From Leptonemataceae bacterium (GTDB lineage Bacteria > Spirochaetota > Leptospiria > Leptospirales > Leptonemataceae): a stretch of DNA of 64,000 nucleotides. The stretch lies in assembly GCA_965227295.1 (NCBI GenBank), contig OZ245742.1, positions 5,696,001 through 5,760,000 on the forward strand. The letters are read 5' to 3'. The position numbers and the translations under genes are program-made. The notes beneath the pieces are model-generated. The model had not been told where the DNA came from, made no database searches, and saw only the letters and a list, made by a program, of their open reading frames with translations. This document shows, one piece after another, positions 10,418 through 30,709 of the stretch (its first letter is position 1; the number at the start of each line of letters is the position of its first letter).

Positions 10418-12670
10418 TCATTCTGCGTCGACGCGCGGCACGACGAAGAAGACGCCTGCTTCTTTTCCGAACCGCAGGTACTCGACAATGTTCGTTCGCA
10501 GGTTGCCTTCGCGCTGGGCCTCTTTCAAATGATAGAGGGCGCCCATCTCCGATCCGTCCTCCGCCCCGGTCCGAATCTCTTCCGGTACATCTTCCCGCAG
10601 ACGCATGTACGCCGGATGGCCGAAGTCCGTGGTTACGAAAATCGGACGCACCCGCTCGCGCACGATGGACTCTTCGGTAAAGAGCGTATGCGGTCCTTCG
10701 CCCTGGTTCCAAAGGTTGACGGCCAGGCCGGGCTGGCAGCGGAACCGGCGCGGGGTCAGAGAATTGTCGGCGATGCTGCTGTAACGGATGCATCCGCTCT
10801 GGCGACGCTCGGCATCGATGATGCCCTGGAAGATCGAGTTCTCTGCTTCGAGATAACGCACGTGGGTTTCACCGAGAATGGTCGTCGCCTCGATGTCGGC
10901 GCGACTGCGCTCCGCATCTACGGCGCGTCCGCTGTGAGCGTGCACAATGCTGTCCACGAGCACCAGAGCGGCGGTGGACGTGCCGAACGCAAGTTGCGCG
11001 GCGATGCTGCGTTCAAAAACAACGGTCAGGTTCTCGTTGTATGTACCGGCCACGTTCGGTACGGCGTTCGCCTGCACGGAGAGCACGCCCTCCCCGGAAT
11101 TGGAACCGGTCAGCGTCGAATGCGCGAACCGCAAGCGCCCTAAGTTTCCCTGTACCACAGTTAACGCGCCTTCCACCAGCAGGCCGTCGCACAGCAAACG
11201 CCCCGGCGTGCGACTTTCCGCCGGCGCCGTTCCTTCCACTTCGATGGAACCGACAAGGTGCGGTCGCAGGCCGGCCGGCACCATGACTCCGGTCCGGCGC
11301 TCGCCGGCGATTACGTTGGGAATCTCGCCCGTCACGGGCCAGTCCGCCGCGGCAATCATGAGGCTGGAGCCGTCTTGCATAACGATGCGCGACGCGGCGG
11401 TGAGATCCTCCGCGTAGCTGGAGTTGTCCATGATCGTAATCAGCCCCACGGTACCGGCGGCCCCGGCGTTCCAGGCCGCAACGGCCTCGCCCAGGGTCGC
11501 ATAGATCGTTTCCGTCCCCACCGGCGTATGACTCTTCGAAACGCCGACGTGCCAGGTAACGCTGTCCAGGTCCAGGGCCTCGTCCACGGAGGCGCGACGG
11601 TTGTAGGGGCCGCCGCCGAGGTCGCCGCTGAATCCGTAAGAGTACGTTACGCGTACGTTAGAGGGAGTAGCCGATTCCGGAAAAGCGATGCGACCGAGCA
11701 CCGGGTCCACGGCGACACTGATCGGTTGATCCACGCTTTGTTCGACGCCGTCCTCGTAGTAGATGTATGTCTTCGTAGACGGCGGTTTTTCCCAGGCGCT
11801 CAGATCCGTAACCAGGATCTCCGCCGGAGGAATCACCGTACCGTTGTCGCTTACGACCAGGACCTCGTCGTCTTCGGCGAAGTACAGATACTCGCGGGTG
11901 ATGTCGCCGTCCGGATCGCGCAGGTTTTCGGTTTCGTCGTAGAGCGGGCGACGACGCAGGGGTGTTGGCAGATTCACCTCGCCGGCGAAACTGCTGATGC
12001 TCTCTTCGGTGCGCGGTCGGTTAAACAACGGCAGGTCCATGCCGAGAGGACTGAAGTTATAACAGCCGGGTTGGACTTCAAAGGCCTCGGCGCTACGCAC
12101 CTCGTAGGACGGCACCGGCCAGACGTAGATGCCGACGTTCGGAATGTTGTAGGCCCCGCCACCTTCCGGGCGACGTACATCCACGGTATGCGCCTGGGTA
12201 TCGAAGGCGGTGTACACGAGATCCATGGCATTCGCGTCCCGAATGTTCGCGGTGCCGCCTTTACCGATGCGCGGGTGATTGATGTTCTGGGTCGCACCGA
12301 GCAGCTCGAAAAACTCCACGACCTTCGAAGGCCAGCCGGTGGCGTCCCGGGCCAGTTGTTCGAGCACGGCCGCGGTACCTTTGCGGCGACGATACGCGAG
12401 CGTATTCGCCACGAAGGCGCGCTGACTGAAGATACCGGGAATCCCGGGATACAGACCGCGCAATCCCAACAGATCGCCCAGGTACGGGACGGCCCATTCC
12501 TCGCACGTCTCGACGAACCAGTTTTCGTAGAGGGTATCGAGATCGTCCTCGAAGATCTTCAGTTCTTCTTCCATGACCCCCAGGAGGGCGCGCAGGGGTT
12601 CTCCTTGCGCGGCGTCCCGGCGACGGTGCACGGCCGGTAATAGATTATAGAGTCTTTCGCTGGTTGCCAT
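10418..12670 (-). CDS. eCIS baseplate wedge protein (P2 gpI/T4 gp7-like N-terminus)
   Basis: LYNLLPAVHRRRD, W.VPYLGDLLG, RRRKGT...LE.LA...TGW; C-terminal GAEDGSEMG. Confidence 0.75.
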   Translation of the reverse strand: MATSERLYNLLPAVHRRRDAAQGEPLRALLGVMEEELKIFEDDLDTLYENWFVETCEEWAVPYLGDLLGLRGLYPGIPGIFSQRAFVANTLAYRRRKGTAAVLEQLARDATGWPSKVVEFFELLGATQNINHPRIGKGGTANIRDANAMDLVYTAFDTQAHTVDVRRPEGGGAYNIPNVGIYVWPVPSYEVRSAEAFEVQPGCYNFSPLGMDLPLFNRPRTEESISSFAGEVNLPTPLRRRPLYDETENLRDPDGDITREYLYFAEDDEVLVVSDNGTVIPPAEILVTDLSAWEKPPSTKTYIYYEDGVEQSVDQPISVAVDPVLGRIAFPESATPSNVRVTYSYGFSGDLGGGPYNRRASVDEALDLDSVTWHVGVSKSHTPVGTETIYATLGEAVAAWNAGAAGTVGLITIMDNSSYAEDLTAASRIVMQDGSSLMIAAADWPVTGEIPNVIAGERRTGVMVPAGLRPHLVGSIEVEGTAPAESRTPGRLLCDGLLVEGALTVVQGNLGRLRFAHSTLTGSNSGEGVLSVQANAVPNVAGTYNENLTVVFERSIAAQLAFGTSTAALVLVDSIVHAHSGRAVDAERSRADIEATTILGETHVRYLEAENSIFQGIIDAERRQSGCIRYSSIADNSLTPRRFRCQPGLAVNLWNQGEGPHTLFTEESIVRERVRPIFVTTDFGHPAYMRLREDVPEEIRTGAEDGSEMGALYHLKEAQREGNLRTNIVEYLRFGKEAGVFFVVPRVDAE

Positions 12671-12681
12671 GTCGGATGTCC

Positions 12682-15600
12682 TTAAATGAATTGCATGAGA
12701 ATGATTCCGGCCGTGTCCTCGTTCAGGAGGAGCATCTGTGCCGGCAGGAAGTCCCCGGTGCTGCCGTCCCGGCGCGCCAGTTCCGCCGCCAGGGTGGAGT
12801 CCACCGCCGCCCGGTATTCATAGACGTTCAGGCGGCCGCGTTCCTTCACCACGGCCAGGCCGTCCGCCGCGTCCGGTTCCCGGATCGTCCAGCGCAGACC
12901 GCGTTTTTCCTGGAAGATCAGCGCGTCCGTGGTGGGCACGTCGAAATCCGTGAGACCGAGTTCGGTGACCTTCGCCTGGATGTTGCTTTGCAGATCCGTC
13001 GTTACCGTGCTGGAACTCTCGAGGTAGTTCTGATTCGGTTCGATATCCAGGCCGAAGATGACGCTGGACGTAAGATACAGCTGATCGAGGTCCACGGCCT
13101 CGACGCCGTCCACGGATTCCAGGACCGTCACGATTTCCGCCGCGGAGACCTCCTGGCCGAAGCCGCGATTCCGAAACGCGAAGTGATTGCGCAAGGCCGT
13201 GTTGGCCGCGGCGAAGACTCGCTCCGGTATGTAACTTGCGTCGATTAGAAGTTTGGCCGCGATATTGAAGCGCAGCGGTTCGTAGGACGCCACGCGGACC
13301 GGCTGAAAGGGGTCGCGCACGGAATCGATACTGCGGATCAAATTCTGGTACAGCCCGGAATTCGTGGCCACGCTGCTGCCGCCGTCCCCGGCCACCGTAA
13401 TGTAGACGAGCTGGATCTCATCCTGCCACAGGCTTACGGCCCGGGCCTTACCGATGCCGCCGAAACCGCGGGCGAAGTTTTCGAAATCTTTCAACGAAAC
13501 AATGCGATCCAGGGTCAGCACCGAAAACGGGGCCCGCTCCCGCGCCTCGCCGAGGTCCTCCGGGGCCGAAGCTCCGGTGGCCGGCAACGGATTGTCCACT
13601 TCCGCAATGCCCACGGGCTGCGTTTGCATGAGTCGCAGGGTATTCGCGGAGACCTGACCGTCCGGACCGATGCCCTTGCGATAGGCAGCGGAAATGTTTT
13701 CGATTCCCGTGGGCAGACGTTCGCCGTTCTCGCCGTCACCGAAGATGATGCGAATGGTACCGTCATCGTCGTGGCGGACCGCGTACTTGCGATCCCGGGC
13801 GCCGAGATCGTACAGTGACGGGCTCTCTTCCCAGAGGACGTCATTGACGCGAACCTCCAGGCTGGTCTCCGTTCCCGTCGCCGTCGGCGCGGATACGTAG
13901 GTCAGCGGCGGTTCGCGCAGCGCGAAGACCTGATTCTTCAGCGACGCATCGCCGGAGCCGAGAACCTCGGAGATCGTTTCGCCGTGAGTCGCCGCGACGA
14001 CGTTCGCCTGGATCGTCACCGTAAGTCTATCGTAGCTGAAGTTAAGCGGAGCTTCGAATTGAAGCGTGCTGTACTTCTGGCTTTGCAGTACGTTCTTCAA
14101 AATTACGGCTTCGCTTACGATCTCGTCGTCCTCGTCCGCGGCCAAAGTGACGAAGGGCTCCGCGCCCGGGGCGACGGTGACCGTACCGATGAAACCCTTA
14201 TCCGTTTCCAGGGCCCAGACCGTTTCACCGGCCAGGGTCGTGACCGGGCTTTCGAGTACGGTGAGGATGTCACCGGGCACGAGGCTGATCGTCTGTGAAC
14301 CGTCGTCGGAAATCATGCGCGGCCGATCGATCTCCTGCAGATCTTCCACGACCTGCAGTCGACTGCGTTTGCCGCTGACGATCAGCACCCGACCGGTCTC
14401 AAGCTCCGTAACGATGCCGGCCAGATCGATCTGATCGCCGCCGACGACTTCCGCGCGCTGGATCGGTGCGGCGGCCAATGTCAACTCTTCACTCTGCAAG
14501 TATACGGTGGTGTCGCGCAGGCCGTAGTTGCCGAGGCCGGTCGGCGTATCCAGTTGCAGACGACTCAACCGTTCGCTCAGGAGAAAGTCCTGGCGATTCA
14601 TCGTTAAGTTCTGTTCAATGCGATATAAGCGACGGCCGGCGCTGTTTTCGAGCACCACCCATCCGCCGGCGAGGGCCTGGGTATAGGTGGTGTCCAGGTC
14701 CACGTACGAATCGAAGATCTTAAAGTCCGGCCATTCCTCGGGATAATCGTCCGGAAGCGGAATCGCGAAGCGCAGTTCCACCGGATAACCGGCCTGCTCG
14801 TTCAGAAGCGTGAGCTGGATCTCGTCGTTCGCCGCGGAAAGAACGCGCGCATCGTCCGCCGTATACACGGCCTCGTTCACCGCGAGATCGTGTCCCTCGA
14901 AGACCCGGGCTTCCGGCCAGATGCTGTCGTCCGCCGTCTTTAATTGCCATTCCTGCACCGAGCCGTTCTGCCCGCCGATCAAAATACGATCCGGCCAATC
15001 ACCGTTTGTCGCCGTGCCAATCGTACCGGCCGTGCCCGGAAAAGCGACACTGTTTGCCGGAGCATTCGCCACGATAAAACTGATCGTGGCGTCGTCCTGG
15101 AGCCGGCGGATGACCAGGTTCCGGGCGGCGTCCACGAACGCCAGGTAGGCGTTGTCCGCGGATACGGCGAGGTCGTAGATCACTCCGTAGTCGCCGTCGG
15201 TGAAAGTAGCACCGGCCGCGGCGCTGGAGCCGTTCCAGGTCCAGAAGCTCACGGTCTTGTTGCTGCCGGCCGCAACGATGATGGAACCGCCGCCGTCGGA
15301 GTACCACTTCACCGTGTTTACGGGACTTGTATCGACGACGATCGTGTGCACCAGCGCCCCGTTGCTGCGATTCCATACACGCACCTTTCCGTCCGTGTAG
15401 GCGCCGGCAATGTAGGCGTCGTCCGGAGAAAACGTGACGTCGTACACATAGACCGTAGATCGATCTTCGTCATCGAGGGGGATCGTCGCATCGAACATGC
15501 TTTGCAACGGAGCCGTACTCGTCCCCGTGTTCCAGCTCCACAGCGTTCCGTCAAGACCGCCGGCGGCCACGGTGGTGTTGTCGCCGGACACGGCGACCGC

Positions 15601-16632
15601 CATGATCGCCTGCGCCGTCGGCGCGGGATCGGGCGCGCCGAAGTACGGATCAAACTTCGTCGGTGAACCGCCGCTGAGATTCCATTTGTAGACCAGGCCG
15701 TCGCCGCCGCCGACGAAGAAAGCCGTCGTCGATAACAGGGCGACCGCGTTGCCGTTCAAGGAAGTCGGCCGGATATTATCGCGTTCCTCTTGCGTCAGAT
15801 CGTTCCAGTAGGGAGCGTTGAAGCCGAACAACAACGCGCTCTGCCGGAAGACGAAGACGCGCGGCTTCGCGGGCAGGCGGGCGTCGTCTAACATCGTACT
15901 CCAGGAAACTACGGTGGTGTCCTCTTCGTCGAGGACGGTGACCTTGCTTACGGTGCGCAGTTCGAAGACGTCGTAATCTTCCGGCGCGGCGGCGGCTTCG
16001 CGTTCGCTACCGACGATCAGCAATAGATCGCCCTGCTGGATCAAAACATCGAGGCCGGCGAGGTACAGCGAAGTCGTTGTACCGTCGATCGTTTGCGCCA
16101 CGTTGATCTGCGCGCCGAGAGAGTTGTACTCGTAACGAGCGATGAAGTCTTCCGACGTTTCGAAGGTTTGCGGGGATTGATCCTGGCCCGGAATGGAAAG
16201 GACCTGAGTGCCGCGCGGTACGAGAACCGTATCGGGGGCGTCTTCGCCTTCTTCGACGGAGAACGCAAGATACGTCGACGCGGCGACACCGGGCTTGAGT
16301 TCGTAACCGATGGACCGGGCCAGTTCCAGTACGGAGCGCCGTTCGCCGGCGGTACGCACGTAACCTTCGTTGGCGATTCGTTCCTGATAAAAGGTCAGCA
16401 CGTCCAGCGCCGACGACCAGGCATCCAGAAAGGCCACCGTCGGATCGTCCGCGGCGCGCGTGGTGAGCGCCTGCAACGGCCGCTCACCGGAAGGCGTCTC
16501 GTGCGACGCCAGCCGTGCCAGCATGCGCGCATAAAACGCCGAGTGCGTACCGATGCGATACTTAATCTTAGAAAGTCCGGGGCGATTGAAGCGTTCCGGT
16601 ACTTCCAGTTCGTCCGTTTGATCGGGCGTCAT
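12682..16632 (-). CDS. eCIS baseplate J-like assembly protein with internal WD40 propeller
   Basis: DVLTFYQERIANEG..RTA.ERRS, ANVVAATHGET, FGDG..G.RLPTG, DRIVSL.DFE.FA; WD40 repeats at about 14740-15765. Confidence 0.85.
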   Translation of the reverse strand: MTPDQTDELEVPERFNRPGLSKIKYRIGTHSAFYARMLARLASHETPSGERPLQALTTRAADDPTVAFLDAWSSALDVLTFYQERIANEGYVRTAGERRSVLELARSIGYELKPGVAASTYLAFSVEEGEDAPDTVLVPRGTQVLSIPGQDQSPQTFETSEDFIARYEYNSLGAQINVAQTIDGTTTSLYLAGLDVLIQQGDLLLIVGSEREAAAAPEDYDVFELRTVSKVTVLDEEDTTVVSWSTMLDDARLPAKPRVFVFRQSALLFGFNAPYWNDLTQEERDNIRPTSLNGNAVALLSTTAFFVGGGDGLVYKWNLSGGSPTKFDPYFGAPDPAPTAQAIMAVAVSGDNTTVAAGGLDGTLWSWNTGTSTAPLQSMFDATIPLDDEDRSTVYVYDVTFSPDDAYIAGAYTDGKVRVWNRSNGALVHTIVVDTSPVNTVKWYSDGGGSIIVAAGSNKTVSFWTWNGSSAAAGATFTDGDYGVIYDLAVSADNAYLAFVDAARNLVIRRLQDDATISFIVANAPANSVAFPGTAGTIGTATNGDWPDRILIGGQNGSVQEWQLKTADDSIWPEARVFEGHDLAVNEAVYTADDARVLSAANDEIQLTLLNEQAGYPVELRFAIPLPDDYPEEWPDFKIFDSYVDLDTTYTQALAGGWVVLENSAGRRLYRIEQNLTMNRQDFLLSERLSRLQLDTPTGLGNYGLRDTTVYLQSEELTLAAAPIQRAEVVGGDQIDLAGIVTELETGRVLIVSGKRSRLQVVEDLQEIDRPRMISDDGSQTISLVPGDILTVLESPVTTLAGETVWALETDKGFIGTVTVAPGAEPFVTLAADEDDEIVSEAVILKNVLQSQKYSTLQFEAPLNFSYDRLTVTIQANVVAATHGETISEVLGSGDASLKNQVFALREPPLTYVSAPTATGTETSLEVRVNDVLWEESPSLYDLGARDRKYAVRHDDDGTIRIIFGDGENGERLPTGIENISAAYRKGIGPDGQVSANTLRLMQTQPVGIAEVDNPLPATGASAPEDLGEARERAPFSVLTLDRIVSLKDFENFARGFGGIGKARAVSLWQDEIQLVYITVAGDGGSSVATNSGLYQNLIRSIDSVRDPFQPVRVASYEPLRFNIAAKLLIDASYIPERVFAAANTALRNHFAFRNRGFGQEVSAAEIVTVLESVDGVEAVDLDQLYLTSSVIFGLDIEPNQNYLESSSTVTTDLQSNIQAKVTELGLTDFDVPTTDALIFQEKRGLRWTIREPDAADGLAVVKERGRLNVYEYRAAVDSTLAAELARRDGSTGDFLPAQMLLLNEDTAGIILMQFI

Positions 16633-22135: not shown

Positions 22136-22767
22136 AGGCCTCCCAGGCTGTTGATACTGCCGATGGCCGCCATAACCTCTTTCGTCACCTGGTGACTGAG
22201 GAAGATATGAAAGCCCGGCTGCGTAATGCTGAAGTCGTTGTAACTCAACACCTGCATGCTGAGATCAACCTTAGCGCGAATCGGATTCAGGTGCGTGTCG
22301 TGCTGTTCCTCGGTCACCGAGAAACTGGAGATGCGCACCGGCAACACCCGACGATCGCCCCAGATGAAGAGCGTCATAATGGGCTCCGGCGGAACGACTT
22401 CGATCGTACCCAGGGCCGCCAGGGCGGCGTTGGATATTACCGAAATCGCACGCGGATACATGAACATTTCCAGAGCCGCGAGTTGCGGGTGCACCCCCAG
22501 GCGCGTCGCCGTGGAGTCCGCCTCTTCCAGTTGATCGGTGGCGTCGATTTCGACGTTCACCTTGATCGTTTCTTTCGGCGCGCCGGAGATGCGATACTGC
22601 TCCGCCTTCGAAGCGCTCCCGGAACCGCCGGTGCCGGTGGTTTCGAGCGAGCGCGTCAGCGACTCCGGGTTGTACTGAAAAACAATGACGTTCGCGATCG
22701 GACTCAAAGGATCGATGCCGACGATGGCTCCCTTTGTGACTCGCGGAGATCCAGGAAAACCGGTCAT
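22132..22767 (-). CDS. CIS tube-initiator-like protein (Afp7-like)
   Basis: FQYNPESLTR, LFIWG.R..PV.I.S.SVTEE, LNPIRAKV.L. Confidence 0.8.
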   Translation of the reverse strand: MTGFPGSPRVTKGAIVGIDPLSPIANVIVFQYNPESLTRSLETTGTGGSGSASKAEQYRISGAPKETIKVNVEIDATDQLEEADSTATRLGVHPQLAALEMFMYPRAISVISNAALAALGTIEVVPPEPIMTLFIWGDRRVLPVRISSFSVTEEQHDTHLNPIRAKVDLSMQVLSYNDFSITQPGFHIFLSHQVTKEVMAAIGSINSLGGL

Positions 22768-23513: not shown

Positions 23514-23788
23514 TATTTCATCCTCCCATTGCCGAAATTGCCGTAGACCGCCCGCGCCGATTGTCGGCCCAGGCCCGACGCCCCGCCCGGGGCGCTACCC
23601 CGCACCGTACCGGCGTCGATGAAGTCGCTGTTGCGTAAGTGAAATGATTGATTCAGACCGCGCGCGGCGACGAGTCGTTCGAGTTCCGCACGAAAGGCCG
23701 CCGCAAAGGCGCGACCGTCGCGCCGCGAAAAATTCGGCCCGGCCTCGATCACGAGTTCCTCGATGTTCAATTCAATCGTCTTTGCCAC
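23513..23788 (-). CDS. small eCIS-associated hypothetical protein
   Basis: IELNIEELVIE...AELERL...GLGRQ.ARAVY; TAATG coupling to the DUF4157 gene. Confidence 0.7.
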   Translation of the reverse strand: MAKTIELNIEELVIEAGPNFSRRDGRAFAAAFRAELERLVAARGLNQSFHLRNSDFIDAGTVRGSAPGGASGLGRQSARAVYGNFGNGRMK

Positions 23789-23792: not shown

Positions 23793-25799
23793 TTACTTAC
23801 CCCAATCCCTGAATTCAGTGCCGCTGATGGTTTTTTCGAGTTTCATGTACTCGCCCTTCGCGGCCTGTAAAAGATGATTCATGTTCACCGGCGCATCGTC
23901 TTCGGCGGCGAGAAAGGCCGCCGACATGGCGATGTTCTTAATATTCCCTCCCGCAACATTCAGCTGCGCCAGGCGTTTATAGTTCAATTCGCCGAGGGGC
24001 ATCGCCGCGGGGAACGCCTTGCGCCAGATCTCCTCGCGCTGCCCCGCGTCCGGAAACGGAAACTGCACCACGAAACGGATGCGTCGCAGAAAGGCCGTAT
24101 CCAGGGAATTCTTCAGGTTCGTCGTTAAAACGGCCAGGCCGCGATAGCTTTCCATGCGTTGCAGTAGATAGCTGACTTCGATGTTCGCATGGCGGTCGTG
24201 ACTGTCCTTGACCTCACTGCGTTTTCCAAACAGAGCGTCCGCTTCATCAAAGAGTAGGATTGCTCCGCCGCTTTCCGCGGCGTCGAAGACCTTGCGCAGG
24301 TTCTTCTCCGTCTCGCCGATGTATTTGCTGACAACCTGACTCAGATCAATGCGAAAGAGATCCAGATCCAGTTCCCGGGCCAGCACTTCACCGGCCATGG
24401 TCTTACCGGTCCCGCTCGGCCCGGCGAATAGAGCACTGATGCCGAGGCCGCGATTGCTGCGATTGCCGAAGCCCCATTCCTCGTAGACCCGGGCGCGATG
24501 TTTCACCTGCACGGCCACATCCCGCAACATCTGCATTTGCAGCGGCGGGAGCACCAGATCGTCCCAGCCCGAGCGCACGTCGATGGGCTGCGCAAGATCT
24601 TCCAGGGCCGGCCGGGCCAGGGCGCGACAGGAACGCCAGAGGGCGCGGCCGATGTCATTGTCTTCGGGAGCGTTGCGCATCTCCCGCACCGTGGCCGCCC
24701 CGGCTTCGCGAATGCGTTCCACACCCAGGTTAAACTGAGACGTAATCAAACTGAGCACCTGATCGGCGCCACCGTTCATCGCCTGCCATTCCGGATACGC
24801 GCTCAGTTCCCGGCGCCAGATCTCGCGCTGCTCCATCGCGCTCGGCTTGCTAACTTCGATTCGTTGCATATTACCGGCCGGAATCAACGCCGGCACGGAT
24901 AGAATGCGCGGCACGCTCAAATCTTCGAAGAAGGCCAGAACGCTTGCGGCCGGATTGCGTTCCTCGGGAACTTCCACGAAGAGCACGAAACCTCCGAGCA
25001 CAACCTCGCGTTCCCACAAACGTGCCAGGGCCTCGCGCTCATCCGCCGCGGCGGGGACGGCCGTGGCCTGCATTTCCATGAGCCGCAGACCGGCGCGCGC
25101 CGCCGCGAAAGCCGCAAGGCTACGCTTATCCGCTTCGGCGCTTCCGTAGAGCTGGACGGCAGGCAAACCGGCGAGCCCGCCGACCGGAGCGCCCCACAGC
25201 TCGTTCATGAGCCCGGCGCTACGAAGACGTTCCCCGGATAACATCTCCGGTGCGGGGACGGGACGGATCATGCCGGCCAGCAGTTCGTCGCGGCTGGCAA
25301 GACCGAGTAAGTAATGCAGGACACGCTCCGGAATGCGCAGGCGGCGATGAATGAGTACGTCACCCGGTTCGCATTCAATCAAACGCCAGCGACGCAGCGG
25401 GGCATCGGGCAGGAGCGCGCTCCAGTGAGCTTCGGCAAGGGCGTCGAGGGCGACAGCGAAGGTCAGGCGCGCATGTCCCTGGGGATGGAAAGCGGCACAC
25501 AGCTCCGCGATCCTGGCATCCAGCTCAATGCCGGCGCACAGCAAAAGCAGATCGCGCTCGAAATTCGAAAGCTGAAATTCCTGGGTTATTTTTTCCAGGG
25601 CCGGCAGCATCCCGGAATCACTGTTCGATGCAGGCGTCCTCCCCGGAAGAGGAGCCGCATCGAAGGCCAGGTTCGGCACGTCCTGTTCACGCAGGGCGTC
25701 CAGGCGCCGCGAAAGCCTTTCGCGCACTTCCTCCAGGCGACCGCGCAGGTACAGCCGGTTCTCCTGCTCCCAGTTCGTATGTGTAAGACTGTTCTGCAT
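23793..25799 (-). CDS. eCIS AAA+ ATPase (Afp15/Pvc15-like)
   Basis: Walker A GPSGTGKT, Walker B LFDEADALFGKR, SKYIGETEKNL; degenerate N-terminal AAA module. Confidence 0.9.
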   Translation of the reverse strand: MQNSLTHTNWEQENRLYLRGRLEEVRERLSRRLDALREQDVPNLAFDAAPLPGRTPASNSDSGMLPALEKITQEFQLSNFERDLLLLCAGIELDARIAELCAAFHPQGHARLTFAVALDALAEAHWSALLPDAPLRRWRLIECEPGDVLIHRRLRIPERVLHYLLGLASRDELLAGMIRPVPAPEMLSGERLRSAGLMNELWGAPVGGLAGLPAVQLYGSAEADKRSLAAFAAARAGLRLMEMQATAVPAAADEREALARLWEREVVLGGFVLFVEVPEERNPAASVLAFFEDLSVPRILSVPALIPAGNMQRIEVSKPSAMEQREIWRRELSAYPEWQAMNGGADQVLSLITSQFNLGVERIREAGAATVREMRNAPEDNDIGRALWRSCRALARPALEDLAQPIDVRSGWDDLVLPPLQMQMLRDVAVQVKHRARVYEEWGFGNRSNRGLGISALFAGPSGTGKTMAGEVLARELDLDLFRIDLSQVVSKYIGETEKNLRKVFDAAESGGAILLFDEADALFGKRSEVKDSHDRHANIEVSYLLQRMESYRGLAVLTTNLKNSLDTAFLRRIRFVVQFPFPDAGQREEIWRKAFPAAMPLGELNYKRLAQLNVAGGNIKNIAMSAAFLAAEDDAPVNMNHLLQAAKGEYMKLEKTISGTEFRDWGK

Positions 25800-25829: not shown

Positions 25830-27089
25830 TTACGGAGCATCCAGGTCCACGGTCGGCCCGTTGAAGTCTCCACCGCCGTCCTGGCTCAGCAAACTCTGTA
25901 CGCCGTCGACTTCCACGCGCATGAGGTACTCTCCGCGCAGGACGTTCGTGATGGAGAAGCCCACCGTGCTGCTCGCCGTCGTCACCGGATCGGAGGGAAT
26001 CACGTACGATTCACCGTCCGTACTGCCGGTGCCCGTTAAGAGCAGGCTCACGGCCTGGCCGGCTTCGACATCCGGGGAAAGCGTGAGCGTCAGTGTGGCC
26101 GTAACGAGATCGTCACCGTCGACACTGAGGCCGGAGGTACTCTGTCCGCTAATCGCCGGGCGCAACAAAATCGGACACGGATTCGAAGTCGCCCGGACCC
26201 GCGTGACGGCGCCGTCCAGGTACTTGTGCACGATCCGCACGGCCCGCTGGCCGGCGGAGAGCCCCGAGGGCAACGTGAACTCCACACGTCCGGCCGCGGA
26301 GGCCGAAGGCGTCGTCTCCACGCTATCCACACGCACGTGAACCGTATCGCCCGCGACGGAGGGTGTTAACTTTGTACCAATGACACTTAAGTCGTCGCCG
26401 GCCAGGATGGCCGTATTCTGGCCCCCCGGAGGATGGACCTTCTCCACCAGCGGCCCGGAGAACTGCTCCAGGGCAATGCGACGCTCGTAGACCGGCAGCG
26501 GGGGCTTCGGCACCGCCGAATCCGGCTCCAGGAAGACCGCCGAGGCCCGGTAGGCGATGGACAGGGCGTGGGGCACCTGAAAGAACACCGACCAGATCTT
26601 CGACATCTCCTCTAAGTTTAGAGTGATCGGAGTTAAGCGGATCGATTCCGGCTGTTGGGCCAGGTCCGAATTCCCCAGGTAATGCGTGGGATCGTTCGTC
26701 AGGATCTTTTGAATCACCGCTTCAATGAACTCCGCGCTCAAGAGCGGTTGCGCGTGCAACAACGTGACCACGCCGCCCATCAAACGCTGGTGTTCCAGCA
26801 ACGAATGATCGCCGTAGAACGAAAGAATGAAGTCCAGGTCCAGGACGGCCTGCGGTTTGTTGCGCAGATCGCCGTTGCCGGCCCGCGTCGGAAGATCGTT
26901 GTTGCGGAACGCCGGATTCGGAATACTCTGATACAGATACAGATTCACCCGGGCTGCCGGGGGATCCGTATCCGCGTCTTTGGGACGCAGCGACGAAACC
27001 GTGACACCGGGCACCACCGAACTCACACTGTCGGCGATGGCCTCTTTCAGGATTTCCGTAACCGCGGCGATGGAAAGATAATTGCTCAC
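25830..27089 (-). CDS. DUF4255 cap/tail-terminator protein (Afp16/Pvc16-like) with C-terminal Ig-like domains
   Basis: MSNYL.IAAVT, VNLYLYQ...N..FRN.DLP, LEEMSKIWS.F...LS.AY.AS.V. Confidence 0.85.
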   Translation of the reverse strand: MSNYLSIAAVTEILKEAIADSVSSVVPGVTVSSLRPKDADTDPPAARVNLYLYQSIPNPAFRNNDLPTRAGNGDLRNKPQAVLDLDFILSFYGDHSLLEHQRLMGGVVTLLHAQPLLSAEFIEAVIQKILTNDPTHYLGNSDLAQQPESIRLTPITLNLEEMSKIWSVFFQVPHALSIAYRASAVFLEPDSAVPKPPLPVYERRIALEQFSGPLVEKVHPPGGQNTAILAGDDLSVIGTKLTPSVAGDTVHVRVDSVETTPSASAAGRVEFTLPSGLSAGQRAVRIVHKYLDGAVTRVRATSNPCPILLRPAISGQSTSGLSVDGDDLVTATLTLTLSPDVEAGQAVSLLLTGTGSTDGESYVIPSDPVTTASSTVGFSITNVLRGEYLMRVEVDGVQSLLSQDGGGDFNGPTVDLDAP

Positions 27090-28153
27090 AGGGCCTCTCC
27101 GTTAACTCGCTTAAGATATTCTTCGAGTGACATTGGACGATGACTCGACTGTTCCGCGGCCGGCGCCGGAGCGGAATGAGCCGTCTCGGAAACCGAACGC
27201 ACTTCAATACGGCCGATGTGAATGCGCACCGCCGGCTCGTTCGACGGCGACTGATCCAGCCCGCGCACCGCGGGCGGCGCAGCGTTCGGTCGATGCAGCA
27301 GCGGCGGCGCTTCAAAGAACGCGCTCTTACCGGGACGTACGGGCGGCAACAACGGAGCGTCGTTGATCCCGGACGGGGTCCGGCCGGAAACGCCGACAGG
27401 CGAATCATCAAAAAATGTCTGCTTATGAAAGTTTTCCACTTCTCCGACTTCGGTGGAACGCGGAGCTTCGTAACGGGGTTCGACTCCCGACATCTCATCG
27501 CCCCGGGTGTTAACCGGCGGCATGAGATCACCGGCGAAAGAATCGACGATCGACGCCGATGAATCCCGGGTCTCCAGCGGAACTGCGCCCGCGCGCATCG
27601 AAGACTGCGGCCCGAGATCGGAAAAATCACGGCGCTGCGTCGGTCCGGCAGGGGAAGCCGGCAACACTCCGCTCTCGTTCGCGGCCGGAGTACCCGGAGC
27701 GGACGGAGTGCCCGGAGCGGTCGGAGCATTCGCAGCCAGGCCGGACAATGCAGCCGGCGCCGCGGACGGTGCCGCGCGACGTTGCACAGGCAGGTCCGCG
27801 TTGCCGTCACTCCGCGGCATGAGGTCACCGACTGGTGACTCTTTCCGCTCATTTTCTTCGGAAGCGGTTGCGGGTTCACCGCTCGCCCGTCGCAGAGTAC
27901 TGGCGTCGGCCTGGATCTTGCGTTGCACGGACGGCGCGGCTTCCTCGGTTTCTTCCGGTTCGGCCTCCGGGGAACGTGCGAGGCGCTGCGCTCCGTTTCC
28001 GACAATCGGTGCACCGCCCTCTTCGATGGAAGCATCCCCTCCCTCTTCCCGGGCGTAGCGCGAGACGAAAAGCGGTCGGGCCTTCGGCAGACTGCCGAGA
28101 TTTCGCTGAACCATTCGTTTAATAAAATTACTCATGATCGTACTTACGCTCAT
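27086..28153 (-). CDS. low-complexity (P/A/E/S-rich) eCIS-associated protein
   Basis: ATGA coupling at both ends; C-terminal VRIHIGRIEVR...SLEEYLKR. Confidence 0.7.
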   Translation of the reverse strand: MSVSTIMSNFIKRMVQRNLGSLPKARPLFVSRYAREEGGDASIEEGGAPIVGNGAQRLARSPEAEPEETEEAAPSVQRKIQADASTLRRASGEPATASEENERKESPVGDLMPRSDGNADLPVQRRAAPSAAPAALSGLAANAPTAPGTPSAPGTPAANESGVLPASPAGPTQRRDFSDLGPQSSMRAGAVPLETRDSSASIVDSFAGDLMPPVNTRGDEMSGVEPRYEAPRSTEVGEVENFHKQTFFDDSPVGVSGRTPSGINDAPLLPPVRPGKSAFFEAPPLLHRPNAAPPAVRGLDQSPSNEPAVRIHIGRIEVRSVSETAHSAPAPAAEQSSHRPMSLEEYLKRVNGEAL

Positions 28154-28908
28154 GCGCCCAACATCGCCATGTAGGATCGCCTGCGCCGGACGCTCATGCG
28201 CAGGATCTCCGCTTCGCTCCAGCCGTAGTACCGCGCCAGGCTGTGAACTTCGTAGAGAAGCTCTTTGGCCCGGGACGACAGTTCGGCCCAGAGAAAGTCG
28301 GCCACGTCCAGAAGTTGCTGAAACTCCCGCTCGCAGACCGGACACTGAAGATTCAAAAGAATCTCCGCCTGGGGATCGGCCTCGGCCATGGCCGCCGCCG
28401 CCAATCCCTGTTCGAAATCCGTAAGCTCATCCACACTAACTTCTTGCGAATGTGAATCAGCTTCCGTCTTCGAACGTTTCGCTTTGGTTACGCATCGGCG
28501 TAACAGCGTGCGGTACGCTTCGTTCTCGGTTCCCGTGCTCAGGGCCGCCGCCAGATCGAATGAATCCGGCAGGCGAAACTCCACGCTCAGGTTTCCCCAT
28601 TCACGCCGCAGGACCTCGTCGTTTTCACGCGTCTCTACGTTGGCCCGAACGTCCCCGGTCTCCAGTTGGAGCTCCATCGGCTCCTGGCAGCCGGGGCATT
28701 CGGCGTAAACATTTAGTTCGCGTCCGAACAAACGTTCGCGAACATCCAGGAGCAACTCGTCCCGCCGGCCGATACTCAACGCCGCGAATTCGCGGCGCGG
28801 AGTATCCGGTGCGTTCAGGCTGAGCAGAGCCAGTGCCCGATCCACGGGATGCCGACTCTGCCCGTCTTCCCAGATCCGCAGTACGGCGGCGGCGGAAAGA
28901 GAGCTCAT
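28150..28908 (-). CDS. T4 gp26-like baseplate/tail assembly protein with two CxxC motifs
   Basis: CPGC and CPVC; EVH.LA..YGWSE.EIL.M...RR. Confidence 0.75.
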   Translation of the reverse strand: MSSLSAAAVLRIWEDGQSRHPVDRALALLSLNAPDTPRREFAALSIGRRDELLLDVRERLFGRELNVYAECPGCQEPMELQLETGDVRANVETRENDEVLRREWGNLSVEFRLPDSFDLAAALSTGTENEAYRTLLRRCVTKAKRSKTEADSHSQEVSVDELTDFEQGLAAAAMAEADPQAEILLNLQCPVCEREFQQLLDVADFLWAELSSRAKELLYEVHSLARYYGWSEAEILRMSVRRRRSYMAMLGA

Positions 28909-28926: not shown

Positions 28927-29451
28927 TTACGCCGGTGCCAGGAAGGAAGGCTCAGCGGGTTCTACGACTTCTACGTCGCGCTCCCAGCCTTCGTTCTCGA
29001 GCTTGATGCTCTGGATCGCGATGGCGTTGCCGTTCGCGTCCAGTTCCGGCAGAGCCTGGAAATCCGAAACCCAGCAACGGTAGATCTTGTACGAGATCGC
29101 GAGCTGACCGGCTTCGTTGTAAACTTCCAGGATGATGTCCTTACGGAAATCCTGAAGGGACGTCTCGGCACCGAGACCGGCGCCGTAGTTCCAGACTTTG
29201 TTCGCCCACTGCTCGAAGTCTTTATCGTGAGTGACGCCGCGTTCGAGCATGATCGCTTCGAAATCGGACTTACCCGGAGACTTGCGCGTAGAGCTGGGAT
29301 CGCCGCCTTCGCGGTGTTTTACGACTTCCGTCGTCCGCTTGAGGGCGCCGACCTTGGAAACACCGGCGACGTAGCGGCCGTCCCATTTGACCCGGAACTT
29401 GAAGTTCTTGTAAGGGTCGAATCGGTTTGCATTAACACTGAATTGTGCCAT
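28927..29451 (-). CDS. tail tube protein (T4 gp19-like, Afp1/5)
   Basis: RFDPYKNFKFRV, REGGD...RKSPG, LERGVT.D..FE.WA; GGAGG RBS. Confidence 0.93.
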   Translation of the reverse strand: MAQFSVNANRFDPYKNFKFRVKWDGRYVAGVSKVGALKRTTEVVKHREGGDPSSTRKSPGKSDFEAIMLERGVTHDKDFEQWANKVWNYGAGLGAETSLQDFRKDIILEVYNEAGQLAISYKIYRCWVSDFQALPELDANGNAIAIQSIKLENEGWERDVEVVEPAEPSFLAPA

Positions 29452-29488
29452 CTAAGTTATCCTCCAATAAACCTTACGAAGCCGGCGA

Positions 29489-30709
29489 TTAAGCCTGCCC
29501 CGCGATCTGCTGCAGCTGGATGATCACGAATTCCGCCGGCTTGAGCGGCGCGAAACCTACGATCACGTTGACGATACCCTTATCGATATCGCTCTGCGGA
29601 TTCACCTCGGCGTCGCACTTCACGAAGTACGCTTCCCGCGGGGAAGTTCCCTGGAACGCTCCCTGACGGAAGAGATCCTGCATGAACGAACCGACATTCA
29701 GGCGCAGTTCGGCCCACAGCGGTGCGTCGTTCGGTTCGAAGACGGCCCACTGCGTTCCGCGGAAAAGGCTCTCCTCGATGTAGAGGGCCAGACGGCGAAC
29801 GGGCAGATACTTCCACTCGCTCGCGGCCGCATCGGTACCGGCCAGAGTCCGCGCGCCCCATACGATACGACCGGCCGGCGGCTTGGAACGCAGGCAGTTA
29901 ACCGCCAGCGGATTCAAGTTACCGTTCTCGGCATCCGTCAGAGGAACGCTGAGCGCGGGCACGCCGTTGAGTCCGGCTTCAATACCGGCGGGCGCTTTCC
30001 ATACGCCCCGGTTCGCATCGGTGGTGGCGATGACGCCGGCGACGGCACCGGAAGGCGCGTAAGTCTTGATCTGGTTGCTGTCGAGGGGATCGGGTTGACG
30101 CAGCCGCGGGAAATACAACGCCGCGTTCTTCTTCTGAGTCGCGCCGATCGTGATGTCCGTGCCGACGTTGGAAACGGCGGTTGCGCTGTCGGTCCAGGTG
30201 GACGGCGGATCAACGAGCAGCATCGCACGACGTTCCTCGCAGTAGGTGGCTGCCGTAGCATATACGGAAGCATCTACTTCGTTGAAGGTGTACGAGCCGT
30301 CACCGTTGTCGGTGGAATCCGGCAGGATGCAGAGTAAGTTAAAGAGATCCGCATCTTCCAATGCATAGATCCCGGTTTTGCTCGCCTGCGAACCGTTGTA
30401 TTCGGTTGCTCCGGCTTCGGAACCGGAAAGCTGTCCGGACTCCGCCACACTGACGATGATTGCGGTAGAACCGCCGTTTACGTAGTAGTCACGAACCGCG
30501 TAGCTCAGAGGGCTCGAGGCATCGAGACCGCCGAAGATTCGTTCATACTCGCCGAAGCTGTTCACCTGTACGGGCGTATTGGTCAGCTCTGCATCGCTGA
30601 CCGGCGTCGTGCCGACGAACGCGGTAATCGACGTGGCCACACCGACTAAGGTGCGCACGCCGCTGGGAATTTCCTGAATATAAACTCCAGGATAGGAAGT
30701 TGTAACCAT
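29489..30709 (-). CDS. contractile tail sheath protein
   Basis: YPGVYIQE, TSITAFVG, RGVWKAPAG, VWGARTL, WAVFEPN, GFAPLKPAEFV; start at 30709 with GGAG RBS. Confidence 0.95.
   Translation of the reverse strand: MVTTSYPGVYIQEIPSGVRTLVGVATSITAFVGTTPVSDAELTNTPVQVNSFGEYERIFGGLDASSPLSYAVRDYYVNGGSTAIIVSVAESGQLSGSEAGATEYNGSQASKTGIYALEDADLFNLLCILPDSTDNGDGSYTFNEVDASVYATAATYCEERRAMLLVDPPSTWTDSATAVSNVGTDITIGATQKKNAALYFPRLRQPDPLDSNQIKTYAPSGAVAGVIATTDANRGVWKAPAGIEAGLNGVPALSVPLTDAENGNLNPLAVNCLRSKPPAGRIVWGARTLAGTDAAASEWKYLPVRRLALYIEESLFRGTQWAVFEPNDAPLWAELRLNVGSFMQDLFRQGAFQGTSPREAYFVKCDAEVNPQSDIDKGIVNVIVGFAPLKPAEFVIIQLQQIAGQA

Follow-up and report, generated by a model that had tools for sequence, protein, structure and literature searches.

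Seventeen tightly packed, intact genes on the minus strand (positions 10418-30709 of the window, meaning the whole 64,000-nt stretch of Leptonemataceae bacterium DNA analysed here) almost certainly make up one operon encoding the chassis of a IIc-type contractile injection system (CIS), a lineage-II eCIS with two Afp11 proteins and a split spike. The fibre gene found beside this operon in relatives is missing from the window, and on balance we lean towards an explanation in which orphan DUF6519 fibres encoded elsewhere in the genome are supplied to the chassis in trans, giving an extracellular particle.

All 17 ORFs are uninterrupted, and by their coordinates neighbouring genes either overlap by 1-4 nt or stand no more than 42 nt apart. 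A strong intrinsic terminator (10313..10336, minus strand; 10-bp stem with 6 GC pairs, 4-nt loop, T7 run) closes the operon ~80 nt past the stop of its last gene, g17. Syntenic orthologues of 17/17 ORFs, at 30-87% identity, are present in two same-genus genomes, G001 and G002; G001 is a Leptospirales bacterium MAG, in agreement with the spirochaete-like host suggested by the first-pass annotation. Pfam and NCBIfam searches recovered a single sheath (PF04984/PF17482), a single gp19 tube (PF06841), a gp51-like protein (PF12322), Pvc16_N/DUF4255, an AAA ATPase with a winged-helix domain, eCIS_core/DUF4157, one CIS_tube protein (PF19266), a spike OB domain (PF04717), gp25, two Baseplate_J/TIGR02243 proteins and a Tail_P2_I protein. 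None of the 17 proteins matched a Pfam family of fibres, tape measures, holins or endolysins. ORFs, families and orthologues thus confirm the first-pass description of 17 apparently intact genes with one sheath, one gp19 tube and a terminator after the last gene. Its gene list overlooked the second tube-family protein (g09, CIS_tube), and the operon end needs correcting, the last three genes encoding two gp6/J-like proteins and one gpI-like protein.

The arrangement of the sheath, tube, gp25, gpJ, gpI, gpV and gpX-like genes resembles that of P2 and could also be read as the tail of a prophage, an R-type tailocin or a classical T6SS. We hold this to be extremely improbable: the eCIS markers Pvc16_N/DUF4255, Afp15-like ATPase, DUF4157 and CIS_tube are all present and bear out the earlier assignment to the eCIS superfamily. 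The 35 other window ORFs scanned contain no capsid, portal, terminase or integrase family, the sheath is one single chain in place of a TssB/TssC pair, and no membrane-complex family was seen in the window.

The locus is of dbeCIS subtype IIc, and of the Tail_P2_I/eBAP5 baseplate type in the newer fibre scheme. Chen 2019 reports two afp11 copies in IIa and IIc and a split afp8 in IIa, IIb and IIc, and the window shows the published marks of IIc (two Afp11 copies, split spike, no Afp14 homologue). Absence of Afp14 is in the same study a property of all lineage II loci, so the lack of such a homologue does not set this locus apart as had been proposed. Nor does the claim of an uncharacterised subtype survive, because in its architecture the operon corresponds gene by gene to A0409, the locus on plasmid pMYCSM01 of Mycobacterium sp. 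JS623 listed as IIc in the Chen 2019 supplement. This best plasmid match (38.8% identity over 97% of g11) is annotated, in order, as sheath, tube, 247 aa, 254 aa, DUF4255, ATPase, 75 aa, DUF4157 (two genes), 218 aa, 121 aa, 374 aa, gpV, 111 aa, gp25, J, 925 aa and 886 aa. Known from sequence only, it equals the operon in order and content from sheath to gpI-like gene, including the two afp11 copies, the split afp8 and the missing afp14 homologue. Among the shared genes are a gp51-like one, a short variable one, a long DUF4255 gene, a small ORF past the ATPase, gpX-like, hub and tip genes and a large gpI-like gene. JS623 carries two genes that the window does not: a second DUF4157 gene (1819 aa) and, immediately past the gpI-like gene, a DUF6519-Kelch fibre gene.

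The operon genes are common to ~25 loci from many phyla, with a wide and patchy distribution. When the 17 proteins were compared by tblastn with 26 related loci retrieved by a g11 profile, g15 was matched in 25/26, g16 and g17 in 24/26, and sheath, tube and g03 in 17/26, the remaining loci being truncated at contig ends or at the limit of the 10-kb flank. Gene order was identical in all five related loci for which it was laid out.

The sheath gene g01 (29489..30709; PF04984 + PF17482) encodes 406 aa from the ATG at 30709; a TTG ORF reaching 30961 was discarded as the start because orthologues align only from residue 81. Its nearest solved sheaths are 8bky (E 2e-72), which is S. coelicolor Cis2 as cited by Casu 2023 and Zachs 2024, and 8bl4 (E 1e-69). 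Next comes the inner tube protein g02 (28927..29451; 174 aa; gp19 family, PF06841 E 1e-43, TIGR02241), with 70-87% identity across phyla. The cap/terminator g05 (25830..27089; Pvc16_N/DUF4255, PF14065 E 1.7e-37 at residues 9-197) bears a ~220-aa C-terminal extension, and its orthologues span 401-532 aa. The Afp15-like AAA ATPase g06 (23793..25799; 668 aa; PF22977 + PF00004) combines a winged-helix with one AAA domain and has three paralogues elsewhere in the genome. It is followed by the small conserved protein g07 (23513..23788; 91 aa; no family match), with orthologues in G001, G002 and related locus L040 and a 75-aa gene at the corresponding place in JS623.

Between tube and cap lie g03 and g04. 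The former (28150..28908; 252 aa) is a gp51-like assembly chaperone by family (PF12322 E 6.5e-13), carrying two CxxC pairs and a C-terminus that resembles DUF6760; it also matches phrog_150 'baseplate hub' and Atlas clusters auto-named 'T4 family baseplate hub assembly chaperone'. At the two other complete CIS loci of this genome (A and B), its equivalent is a pair of overlapping ORFs, the second with DUF6760, flanked by the tube gene on one side and a tape-measure candidate on the other. The ruler-like protein g04 (27086..28153; 355 aa), whose start codon overlaps the stop of g03 in an ATGA, belongs to no Pfam, PHROG or PDB-related family. Across 16 aligned relatives its ends are conserved (~30 aa at the N-terminus, ~50 aa at the C-terminus, IGRxEVR...SLxxYLxRR) and its middle is variable and P/A/S-rich, and predicted to be disordered rather than helical. 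Conserved ends, variable middle and a place directly after chaperone-like g03 make g04 the best tape-measure candidate, and a reasonably probable one. Against it count the disordered P/A/S-rich middle, the lack of detectable similarity to any tape measure and a length spread of 238 to 1040 aa among relatives, as well as the DUF4157 gene g08, which sits immediately ahead of the initiator, where a tape-measure gene classically lies; a DUF4157 protein at this place in S. davawensis is tape-measure-related.

g08 itself (22773..23513; 246 aa) carries an HExxH-like motif and a C-terminal DUF4157/eCIS_core domain (PF13699 E 1.8e-31, residues 169-245), a cargo-type layout, but no toxin domain was found in it. 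DUF4157 likewise occurs in AlgoCIS cargos, which according to the available text of 10.64898/2026.05.27.728243 are loaded by the ATPase and have DUF4157 between a disordered N-terminal part and a C-terminal domain. To list the locus as having no effector, as was done at first, is to overlook that DUF4157 is itself cargo-associated; ~14 further DUF4157 matches lie elsewhere in the genome.

Hub and spike are encoded by g09 to g13. The CIS_tube protein g09 (22132..22767; 211 aa; PF19266; 50-68% identity in relatives) is probably the tube initiator, and g10 (21827..22135; 102 aa) is a gpX-like small baseplate protein matching phrog_7145 'baseplate wedge subunit' (E 5e-4); the g10 orthologue of an S. 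europaeiscabiei plasmid carries the annotation 'tail protein X'. The gp27/gpD-like hub g11 (20582..21784; 400 aa; weak VgrG_rel and VgrG PDB matches, phrog_1887; 37-49% identity in 26 loci) represents the split-off half of Afp8. After the spike g12 (19860..20585; 241 aa; gp5/gpV OB domain, PF04717 E 6e-20) comes g13 (19537..19860; 107 aa), a Cys-rich protein with a match in 25/26 related loci and none to PAAR, any other family or the PDB, whose position makes it the probable spike tip.

The baseplate follows, with the gp25/gpW wedge protein g14 (19159..19515; PF04965 E 1.5e-18), the first Afp11/gp6/gpJ-like protein g15 (16629..19118; 829 aa; TIGR02243 E 5e-82, phrog_219), the second Afp11-like protein g16 (12682..16632; 1316 aa; TIGR02243 E 1.5e-66, PF00400) and the Tail_P2_I (gpI/TssG-like) adaptor g17 (10418..12670; 750 aa; PF09684 and TIGR02242, both sub-cut-off). 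Two predicted features are newly described here: g16 contains a WD40 propeller, and g17 a tailspike-like beta-helix. In the AF2 model of g16 (pLDDT 74.6), ~residues 296-610 form a seven-bladed propeller, and Foldseek matched the model to WD40 domains (5yzv_B, TM 0.84) and to the CIS baseplate chains 9gtp_1G and 7b5h_AH. This insertion is common only to G001, G002, L040 and L041, the second J-like protein of JS623 (925 aa) being too short for it. In the g17 model (pLDDT 67), residues ~360-715 form a right-handed beta-helix that VIA-align places near 7dmk_A (Z 21.1) and tailspike 7eea_A (Z 16.2). Fibre-like folds are thus predicted inside these ORFs, which the first pass had itself named as grounds for refuting its reading.

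As to a dedicated fibre gene, its absence from the locus was correctly noted, the 17 proteins matching zero Pfam fibre families. The available part of PMC12923769 describes DUF6519 (eBAP5) as the baseplate-anchor domain of eCIS fibres, paired with Tail_P2_I adaptors, and such a gene follows the last gene in 7/7 relatives examined. In G001, G002, Variovorax humicola and Methylocapsa polymorpha no more than ~100 nt separate it from the g17 stop, in a SAR324 MAG ~2 kb (5/5 genomes searched); two plasmid records also carry it at this place. That a gene universal in these relatives is lost here, with operon flanks that do not align with G001 or G002, an IS transposase ~8 kb away and a possible redundancy with two further complete CIS loci in the genome, might mean that fibre loss was the first step towards inactivation of a locus making no working particles. 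We think such decay improbable, in view of 17/17 intact ORFs with coupled starts and stops, catalytic and structural motifs that are all present, and no DUF6519 remnant in the window (best tblastn E 0.023, inside another gene).

A genome-wide DUF6519 search, proposed in the first pass, gave 14 matched stretches in seven ORFs of 1218-1988 aa, with zero in the window; together with the dispersed DUF4157 matches, this favours its alternative of unlinked fibre and cargo genes. All seven genes are solitary and lie at least 78 kb from the operon. DUF6519 is present in 7/7 and DUF2341 with Laminin_G_3 in 6/7, and the tips vary (FG-GAP repeats, EPTP, Collar in three strong matches and one weak, C1q); inspection of the N-termini revealed a hydrophobic signal-like stretch in 0/7. 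Their anchor domains share 41-49% identity with the locus-linked fibres of G001 and G002, and none of the seven is an obvious orthologue of the lost gene. A complex fold of three copies of orphan residues 1-230 with g17 residues 1-300 scored 0.69, against 0.06 for the best of three controls, and passed a mark attained by 116/157 solved complexes and 2/215 mismatched pairs, with partner pLDDT at least 66, one of the three runs at 0.00 and runs agreeing in at least 0% of contacts. In this model each of the three orphan copies uses its invariant QQGR motif (residues 21-30) to contact g17 residues 124-177, which are low-confidence loops in the monomer model; loop and motif are both conserved. The pass could be memory of likeness to a TssK-TssG-like solved complex, and the two other CIS loci, each with its own Tail_P2_I protein, could be the orphans' users instead. 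Weighing these points, we lean slightly towards use of the orphans by this chassis.

The available sections of PMC12923769 fit the locus in several respects: Tail_P2_I is the last baseplate gene, DUF6519 proteins carry lectin-like and propeller domains, and loop-mediated TssG/TssK-like attachment is reproduced in our complex model. There, however, fibre genes lie downstream of Tail_P2_I or Afp11/12 in ~90%, whereas all seven here are solitary; loci without a fibre were set aside, and the word 'orphan' was not found in that paper. It also remarks that loci without fibre genes may act intracellularly. A particle left fibre-less by DUF6519 loss could bind through the g17 beta-helix or g16 propeller, or act in the producer or from its membrane, the orphans serving other loci or roles. 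The terminator directly after g17, the nearest solved sheath being that of the cytoplasmic S. coelicolor CIS, the membrane-bound clade IIa system with its two cis11 genes, the tailspike-type helix and the restriction of the g16 propeller to a subclade would suit this, and we consider it possible though rather unlikely. Relatives with a linked fibre also have the g17 beta-helix region, which is conserved throughout the subtype and is therefore no substitute for a fibre; G001, G002 and L040 combine the WD40 insertion with linked DUF6519 genes; the operon encodes no transmembrane-segment protein, and the 3-TM ORF nearby has no conserved counterpart next to the loci of relatives; and the g17 loop and orphan motif are conserved and dock in the model.

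With orphan fibres supplied in trans, assembly might run as follows. Chaperone-like g03 and ruler-like g04 would set up and measure the tube on the hub of g09-g13, g14-g17 would form the wedges, g01 and g02 would polymerise and g05 would cap the particle. The ATPase g06 would load DUF4157-tagged cargo, candidates being minimal g08 and possibly some other genomic DUF4157 proteins. The conserved N-terminal trimer of the seven solitary DUF6519 proteins would clamp the g17 loop (residues ~124-177), and the particle would be freed by lysis and act outside the cell. If true, one chassis would have several alternative target specificities. Action outside the cell seems to us somewhat probable; counted against it are the lack of any lysis or release gene among the 17 operon proteins and the other window ORFs scanned, and the lineage II members studied so far, which act intracellularly or from the membrane (S. 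coelicolor cytoplasmic, H. borinquense membrane-bound). Three of the four parts first called missing (fibre, tape measure, cargo) can be accounted for, lysis being the exception.

Comparison with known systems places the locus beside several others. The S. coelicolor CIS (IId; 8bky, 9gtp) also lacks conventional Afp13 and Afp14 but has a single afp11 and an unsplit afp8 (Chen 2019), another gene order and a sheath of 534 aa, ~130 aa longer than that of the window. The archaeal T6SS-like CIS of Halogeometricum borinquense (IIa; 9ezm, sheath similarity E 1.9e-61) has no recognisable cis14 or cis6 and differs by a conserved six-TM protein encoded upstream, the window locus being accompanied by no conserved membrane protein. 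Lineage I (Afp, PVC, AlgoCIS) has sheath, tube, cap, ATPase, spike, gp25 and gp6-like proteins in common with the window and differs in its several sheath or tube paralogues, unsplit Afp8, Afp12, helical Afp14/Alg14 tape measures and linked Afp13/Alg19 fibres. According to the accessible text of Nagakubo et al. 2024 (PMC11126660), the S. davawensis-type sheath clade spans Actinobacteria, Proteobacteria, Chloroflexota, Acidobacteriota and Bacteroidota keeps its synteny and includes one plasmid-borne member, with a DUF4157 gene immediately ahead of those for initiator, spike and tip. Distribution and layout agree with those of the window locus, which may belong to the same clade. The S. davawensis group is defined by a very large tme-like ORF with N-terminal DUF4157 and nuclease activity, compared with 246 aa and a C-terminal DUF4157 in g08, and the S. 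davawensis locus ends with a receptor-binding-protein-like and a peptidoglycan-binding gene.

The window (positions 5696001-5760000 of contig C1 of the genome under study, G000) is part of a single 5.94-Mb contig, and its contractile injection system (CIS) locus is real and intact. Seventeen minus-strand ORFs, numbered g01 to g17 from the sheath to the gpI-like adaptor, lie between 10418 and 30709, neighbours overlapping by 1-4 nt or standing no more than 42 nt apart. The operon is closed by a terminator (10336-10313) that has a 10-bp stem and a T7 run. Pfam and NCBIfam identify a sheath (g01, PF04984/PF17482), a gp19-type tube (g02, PF06841), a 'T4 baseplate' protein (g03, PF12322), a 419-aa Afp16-like cap with a Pvc16_N/DUF4255 domain (g05, PF14065, E 1.7e-37), an Afp15-like AAA ATPase with a winged-helix domain (g06, PF22977 and PF00004), an eCIS_core/DUF4157 protein whose domain covers residues 169-245 of 246 (g08), a CIS_tube protein (g09), a gpV/gp5 OB-domain protein (g12, PF04717), gp25 (g14), two Baseplate_J/TIGR02243 proteins (g15, 829 aa; g16, 1316 aa) and a 750-aa Tail_P2_I protein (g17) that stays below the cut-offs of both PF09684 (19.3 bits against 20.6) and TIGR02242. 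For g04, g07, g10, g11 and g13 neither collection returned a family above threshold. Transmembrane-like segments were found in none of the operon proteins, and Rfam gave 0 matches in the window at gathering thresholds. The first-pass annotation of a compact, intact operon with one sheath, one gp19 tube and a terminator after g17 is thus confirmed by ORF coordinates, protein families and the stem-T7 structure. Its guess of a spirochaete-like host was right as well: G001, from the same genus, is a Leptospirales bacterium. Synteny of 17/17 genes is kept in G001 and in G002, the other genome of the genus, and the operon flanks gave no blastn alignment to either.

The extracellular CIS (eCIS) markers sheath, gp19-type tube and Baseplate_J (Afp11) all occur in this one locus, together with the DUF4255 cap and the Afp15-like ATPase. 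Two afp11 copies are present (g15 and g16, each passing TIGR02243), an arrangement of subtypes IIa and IIc, and afp8 is split, as in IIa, IIb and IIc (Chen et al. 2019), into a gp27-like hub with weak VgrG-related matches (g11) and the gp5-like g12 (PF04717). At the spike-tip position, where IIc expects a PAAR-like afp10, lies g13, which is matched in 25/26 related loci and resembles no PAAR family and no PDB chain. PDB sequence searches were also uninformative for g03 (chance-level matches only) and for g11 (E 0.059 to a VgrG). Among plasmids, the best relative of g11 is found on Mycobacterium sp. JS623 pMYCSM01 (38.8% identity; only 28% for pSA1, a second IIc-listed plasmid); these identities and the gene order shared with pMYCSM01 serve as a proxy for Afp11-tree placement. 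The annotation of pMYCSM01 reproduces the operon gene for gene, and its locus is entry A0409, subtype IIc, in the supplementary data of Chen et al. (2019), so that the earlier proposal of an uncharacterised CIS subtype has to be dropped. On sequence grounds, the locus very probably belongs to eCIS subtype IIc, a known and widely transferred one, with a Tail_P2_I/eBAP5 baseplate. Chen et al. (2019) also describe 2 or 3 conserved genes of unknown function per subtype; here these subtype-specific unknowns are g03, g04 and g07. No classical T6SS TssB/TssC pair, ClpV or TssJLM was found among the window's proteins, and the sheath is single-chain.

Related loci (26) were retrieved with a g11 profile and searched by tblastn with all 17 proteins. 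They span Chloroflexia, Dehalococcoidales, Caldilineaceae, several Variovorax species, Methylocapsa polymorpha, Bacteroidetes, Actinomycetota, Haliangium, Acidobacteriota, SAR324, Neomarinimicrobiota and Gemmatimonadaceae, among others. Matches to g15 occur in 25/26 loci, to g16 and g17 in 24/26, and to sheath, tube and g03 in 17/26, the loci lacking the latter three being truncated, either at a contig end or by the limit of the 10-kb flank; gene order was identical in 5/5 loci whose order was laid out. Within the order, g11 homologues (E <= 1e-10) were detected in 5/61 sampled genomes, namely the three of the genus (G000 included) and two other genera of the family, with 0/24 in the sister family. 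Such a patchy distribution is of the kind expected from horizontal transfer. The locus appears to bring eCIS of this type to Leptospirales, a literature search for 'contractile injection system' and 'Leptospira' having returned passing mentions only.

The solved sheaths nearest to g01 are Cis2 of S. coelicolor (8bky, E 2e-72) and of H. borinquense (9ezm, E 1.9e-61), compared with E 1e-36 to 1e-45 for PVC, Afp, AlgoCIS and tCIS sheaths. By its published description rather than by sequence, the S. davawensis CIS (Nagakubo 2024, PMC11126660) is probably the nearest experimentally studied relative: its sheath clade is described as covering the same odd mix of phyla with conserved synteny and one plasmid-borne member, and a DUF4157 gene immediately precedes the genes for initiator, spike and tip, as in the window. 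The tme-containing group of that study is described with a very large ORF with N-terminal DUF4157 directly before the baseplate genes, whereas g08 is only 246 aa long with the domain C-terminal; the JS623 plasmid has a 1819-aa ORF of the tme-group kind, which the window lacks.

Some proteins differ in size from their counterparts. The sheath of this genus (window 29489-30709, minus strand) is short, at 401-412 aa, and probably lacks the outer, variable domain; most related loci have sheaths of about 510-550 aa, and S. coelicolor one of 534 aa. The g05 cap (25830-27089, minus strand) is extended at its C-terminus by about 220 aa, for which the sole match, a weak one, is to an Ig-like adhesin repeat; such extensions are general in the subtype (401-532 aa). 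A 437-aa ORF at 26722-28035 was discarded as spurious, since it runs across g04 and g05 in a different frame and is conserved only where it shadows the g05 N-terminus.

What sets the locus apart is its fibre. As reported in PMC12923769 (2026), fibre genes lie downstream of baseplate genes in about 90% of cases, and eCIS fibres use five baseplate-anchor domains, among them DUF6519, named eBAP5. The last baseplate gene, the Tail_P2_I adaptor g17, is homologous to the gene preceding DUF6519 in 7 relatives. On the JS623 plasmid the g17 homologue is followed by a gene with a DUF6519 N-terminus and then Kelch repeats, and on a Streptomyces europaeiscabiei plasmid by a gene annotated as DUF6519. All five related genomes searched have a downstream DUF6519 (5/5): in G001, G002, Variovorax humicola and Methylocapsa the matches begin no more than about 100 nt past the g17 stop, and in the SAR324 MAG some 2 kb beyond it. 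In both G001 and G002 the g17 orthologue is immediately followed by a tandem array of three DUF6519 genes (G001:C2:1316899-1331005; G002:C10:268832-282961); one of these tandem genes lies in an open frame of about 5460-5500 aa. Downstream of g17 in the window there is no such gene, only the terminator and then unrelated genes, and no DUF6519 match or remnant fragment was found anywhere within the window. The initial claim of no recognisable fibre therefore holds for fibre genes in the locus and fails for its ORFs, two of which contain fibre-like folds (the g17 beta-helix and the g16 propeller discussed below).

Elsewhere, the genome encodes seven intact, solitary DUF6519 ORFs of 1218-1988 aa, hereafter orphan fibres, at 0.44, 0.62, 1.72, 2.62, 3.68, 5.47 and 5.80 Mb. 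DUF6519 is present in 7/7, with DUF2341 and Laminin_G_3 in 6/7, and the tips differ: seven FG-GAP repeats, EPTP, phage Collar in three and weakly in a fourth, and C1q. Anchor regions share 43-58% identity among the orphans and 41-49% with the linked fibres of G001 and G002, and the motif QQGR..DAD.NE is invariant in 11/11 aligned DUF6519 sequences. Neither a conserved neighbour gene beside the seven orphans nor a signal-like N-terminus among them was found. The shortest (1218 aa) is followed by an overlapping same-strand ORF of 449 aa, and the two (G000:C1:618743-623567, L063:1743-6567) may be one gene split by a frameshift. DUF6519 libraries of 7 to 10 members occur within the genus, with 20 matched stretches in total in G001 and 14 in G002.

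A fibre gene both unlinked and multiplied, with seven orphans here, remains noteworthy. We tentatively suggest, without holding it for the probable case, that one eCIS chassis (the products of the 17 genes) might use a dispersed library of seven interchangeable DUF6519 fibres with a shared anchor and different tips, encoded in trans. With fibres away from the operon, target range would depend on fibre combinations or on regulating the fibre genes separately. If true, this would be the first eCIS with a specificity module unlinked from the machine and multiplied. Should the orphans serve this chassis, eCIS target range would not be readable from the operon alone, and surveys discarding "fibre-less" loci would miss systems with distant fibres. 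A shared anchor with varied tips also offers a natural counterpart to the fibre swapping that is being engineered in PVC and AlgoCIS.

Attachment of eBAP3 and eBAP5 is tied in PMC12923769 to Tail_P2_I adaptors through a loop-mediated, TssG/TssK-like contact. A complex of three copies of the orphan at 5.80 Mb (residues 1-230) with g17 residues 1-300 was folded and scored 0.69 against 0.06 for the best of three controls, the mark being reached by 116/157 solved complexes and 2/215 mismatched pairs; the runs gave 0.69, 0.71 and 0.00, with partner pLDDT of at least 66 and a reported run agreement of at least 0% of contacts. Confident contacts in the model join residues 21-30 and 135-141 of all three orphan copies to g17 residues 124-177, a stretch that is a low-confidence loop in the monomer model and holds conserved positions. 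The pass may be partly owed to solved TssK-TssG-like complexes, and the model supports a predicted binding of the orphan N-terminus to g17, short of proof.

Could g17 itself replace the fibre? Its model (pLDDT 67, better at residues ~240-630) contains a right-handed parallel beta-helix at ~360-715, which VIA-align matches to the PL6 alginate lyase 7dmk_A (Z 21.1, rmsd 3.1, 256 aligned), to tailspikes of cyanophage Pam1 (7eea_A, Z 16.2) and an Acinetobacter phage (6c72_A, Z 15.7) and to many pectate lyases; Foldseek was weak, with no match at E <= 0.001, so that the clear beta-helix matches come from VIA-align only. This region is conserved subtype-wide, which makes it a standing feature of the adaptor and no substitute for a lost fibre. 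In the g16 model (residues 1-1190, pLDDT 74.6), about 26 strands at 296-610 make up a seven-bladed propeller. By Foldseek the model resembles WD40 domains (5yzv_B, target TM 0.84) as well as two CIS baseplate chains, 9gtp_1G of S. coelicolor and 7b5h_AH of Anabaena, and g16 is accordingly a Cis11/Afp11 paralogue with an inserted propeller. In the alignment, the WD40 insertion and two smaller ones are restricted to the three genomes of the genus and the SAR324 (L040) and Neomarinimicrobiota (L041) loci; most relatives have a counterpart of about 900-1000 aa without it. The WD40 insertion in the second Afp11 copy also remains noteworthy, and apart from such points this is an unremarkable representative of a catalogued subtype.

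A tape measure had likewise been reported missing, and indeed none of the 17 proteins resembles a tape-measure family in Pfam, NCBIfam or PHROG. This is not peculiar to the locus: Chen et al. (2019) describe afp14 homologues as generally missing throughout lineage II, which makes the absence of a recognisable tape measure a known lineage trait. Two proteins come into question. The first, g04 (355 aa, also in the stored annotation), begins with an ATG overlapping the g03 stop as ATGA, and its family occupies the same place in relatives, with 16 aligned sequences of 238 to 647 aa (a 1040-aa member, L035, was left out and no ORF was found for L032). Conservation is confined to the N-terminus (MSxFLxRLxxR...RPRxxSRFE) and the C-terminus (VxIGRxEVRA...SLxxYLxRR), with a P/A/S/E-rich middle; a ruler requires just such conserved ends around a variable spacer. 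By our own estimate of about 0.35 nm per residue in an extended chain, g04 could span about 120 nm. The preceding g03 is gp51-like, auto-named 'baseplate hub assembly chaperone' and DUF6760-like at its C-terminus. In two further CIS loci of this genome, A and B, its equivalent is an overlapping ORF pair, the second with DUF6760, between the tube gene and a tape-measure candidate. In locus A this pair (G000:C1:1578062-1578648, L016:12063-12649) consists of 127 aa and 86 aa (DUF6760) with a 58-nt overlap in different frames; the stretch concerned in locus B is L018:14566-14853. Phages have a frameshifted tail-chaperone pair, and the locus A pair looks like such a phage-type pair joined by programmed frameshift, with its parts fused in g03. 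Given its gene order and chaperone-like g03, the module of sheath, tube, chaperone and g04 mirrors the phage order of sheath, tube, chaperones and tape measure.

Based on position and ruler-like layout, we propose, with moderate confidence, that g04 is the tape measure. Against this, g04 is not predicted to be helical, and the candidates of loci A and B carry another C-terminal motif, which places them outside the g04 family. A genome-wide scan with the g04 C-terminal motif found g04 itself and one chance match only, an Atlas search returned unnamed clusters only, and a profile search returned only 15 proteins, which says little on family range because low-complexity words saturated the candidate list. 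The second protein, g08, is encoded immediately before the initiator, where a tape measure classically lies, and in S. davawensis the gene at that place is described as a tape-measure-related effector; we regard g08 as an improbable tape measure. The g04 family is thus a concrete, testable candidate for lineage II, where no tape measure is known by homology.

The DUF4157 protein also bears on cargo. It has a typical DUF4157 N-terminal motif and an HExxH-like C-terminus, and no toxin domain was detected in it, so the original statement that effectors are lacking is correct as regards toxin domains and overlooks g08 as another form of the part. AlgoCIS cargos are described in a preprint (10.64898/2026.05.27.728243) as having a disordered N-terminal part, through which the ATPase loads them, DUF4157 and a C-terminal domain. 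About 14 DUF4157 matches lie outside the window in this genome, including three in locus B and four clustered at 2.466-2.474 Mb, which makes unlinked cargo for the chassis plausible. One, a 1254-aa ORF, adjoins an orphan Afp15-like ATPase of 721 aa away from sheath genes (G000:C1:4783075-4789018, L020). As first noted, lysis genes are missing: no holin or endolysin family was found among the operon proteins and the 35 neighbouring ORFs scanned. A 201-aa ORF at 32129-32734 (minus strand, as the operon, 1.4 kb upstream of the sheath) has three strongly hydrophobic/transmembrane segments and a weak SLATT match (E 6e-4), and was not found beside related loci. Lectin-like tips on orphan fibres without secretion signals would favour their mounting on a particle before it encounters a target outside the cell. 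Lineage II systems examined to date, which differ in mode of action, work from within the cell.

Loci A (G000:C1:1571912-1594306; L016, L021) and B (G000:C1:2793954-2818434; L018, L022) are both complete. In each, the ATPase and a short DUF4255 gene precede the sheath, and there are two gp19 tubes but one J-like protein (1131-1333 aa). The last genes of locus A encode two Collar-domain fibres, and locus B has three DUF4157 genes. Their caps measure 191-208 aa, and after that of locus A comes a separate protein bearing Ig-like and CarboxypepD_reg domains. Within the window, a 2018-aa bacterial alpha-2-macroglobulin followed by a PBP1C-type penicillin-binding protein (38295-46572, plus strand) forms a classical pairing. 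An IS transposase (DUF772 and DDE_Tnp_1) and a Uma2-family endonuclease lie about 8 kb past the operon end (1610-3329, minus strand), and GC content falls to 0.54 at 8001-10000, just beyond the terminator.
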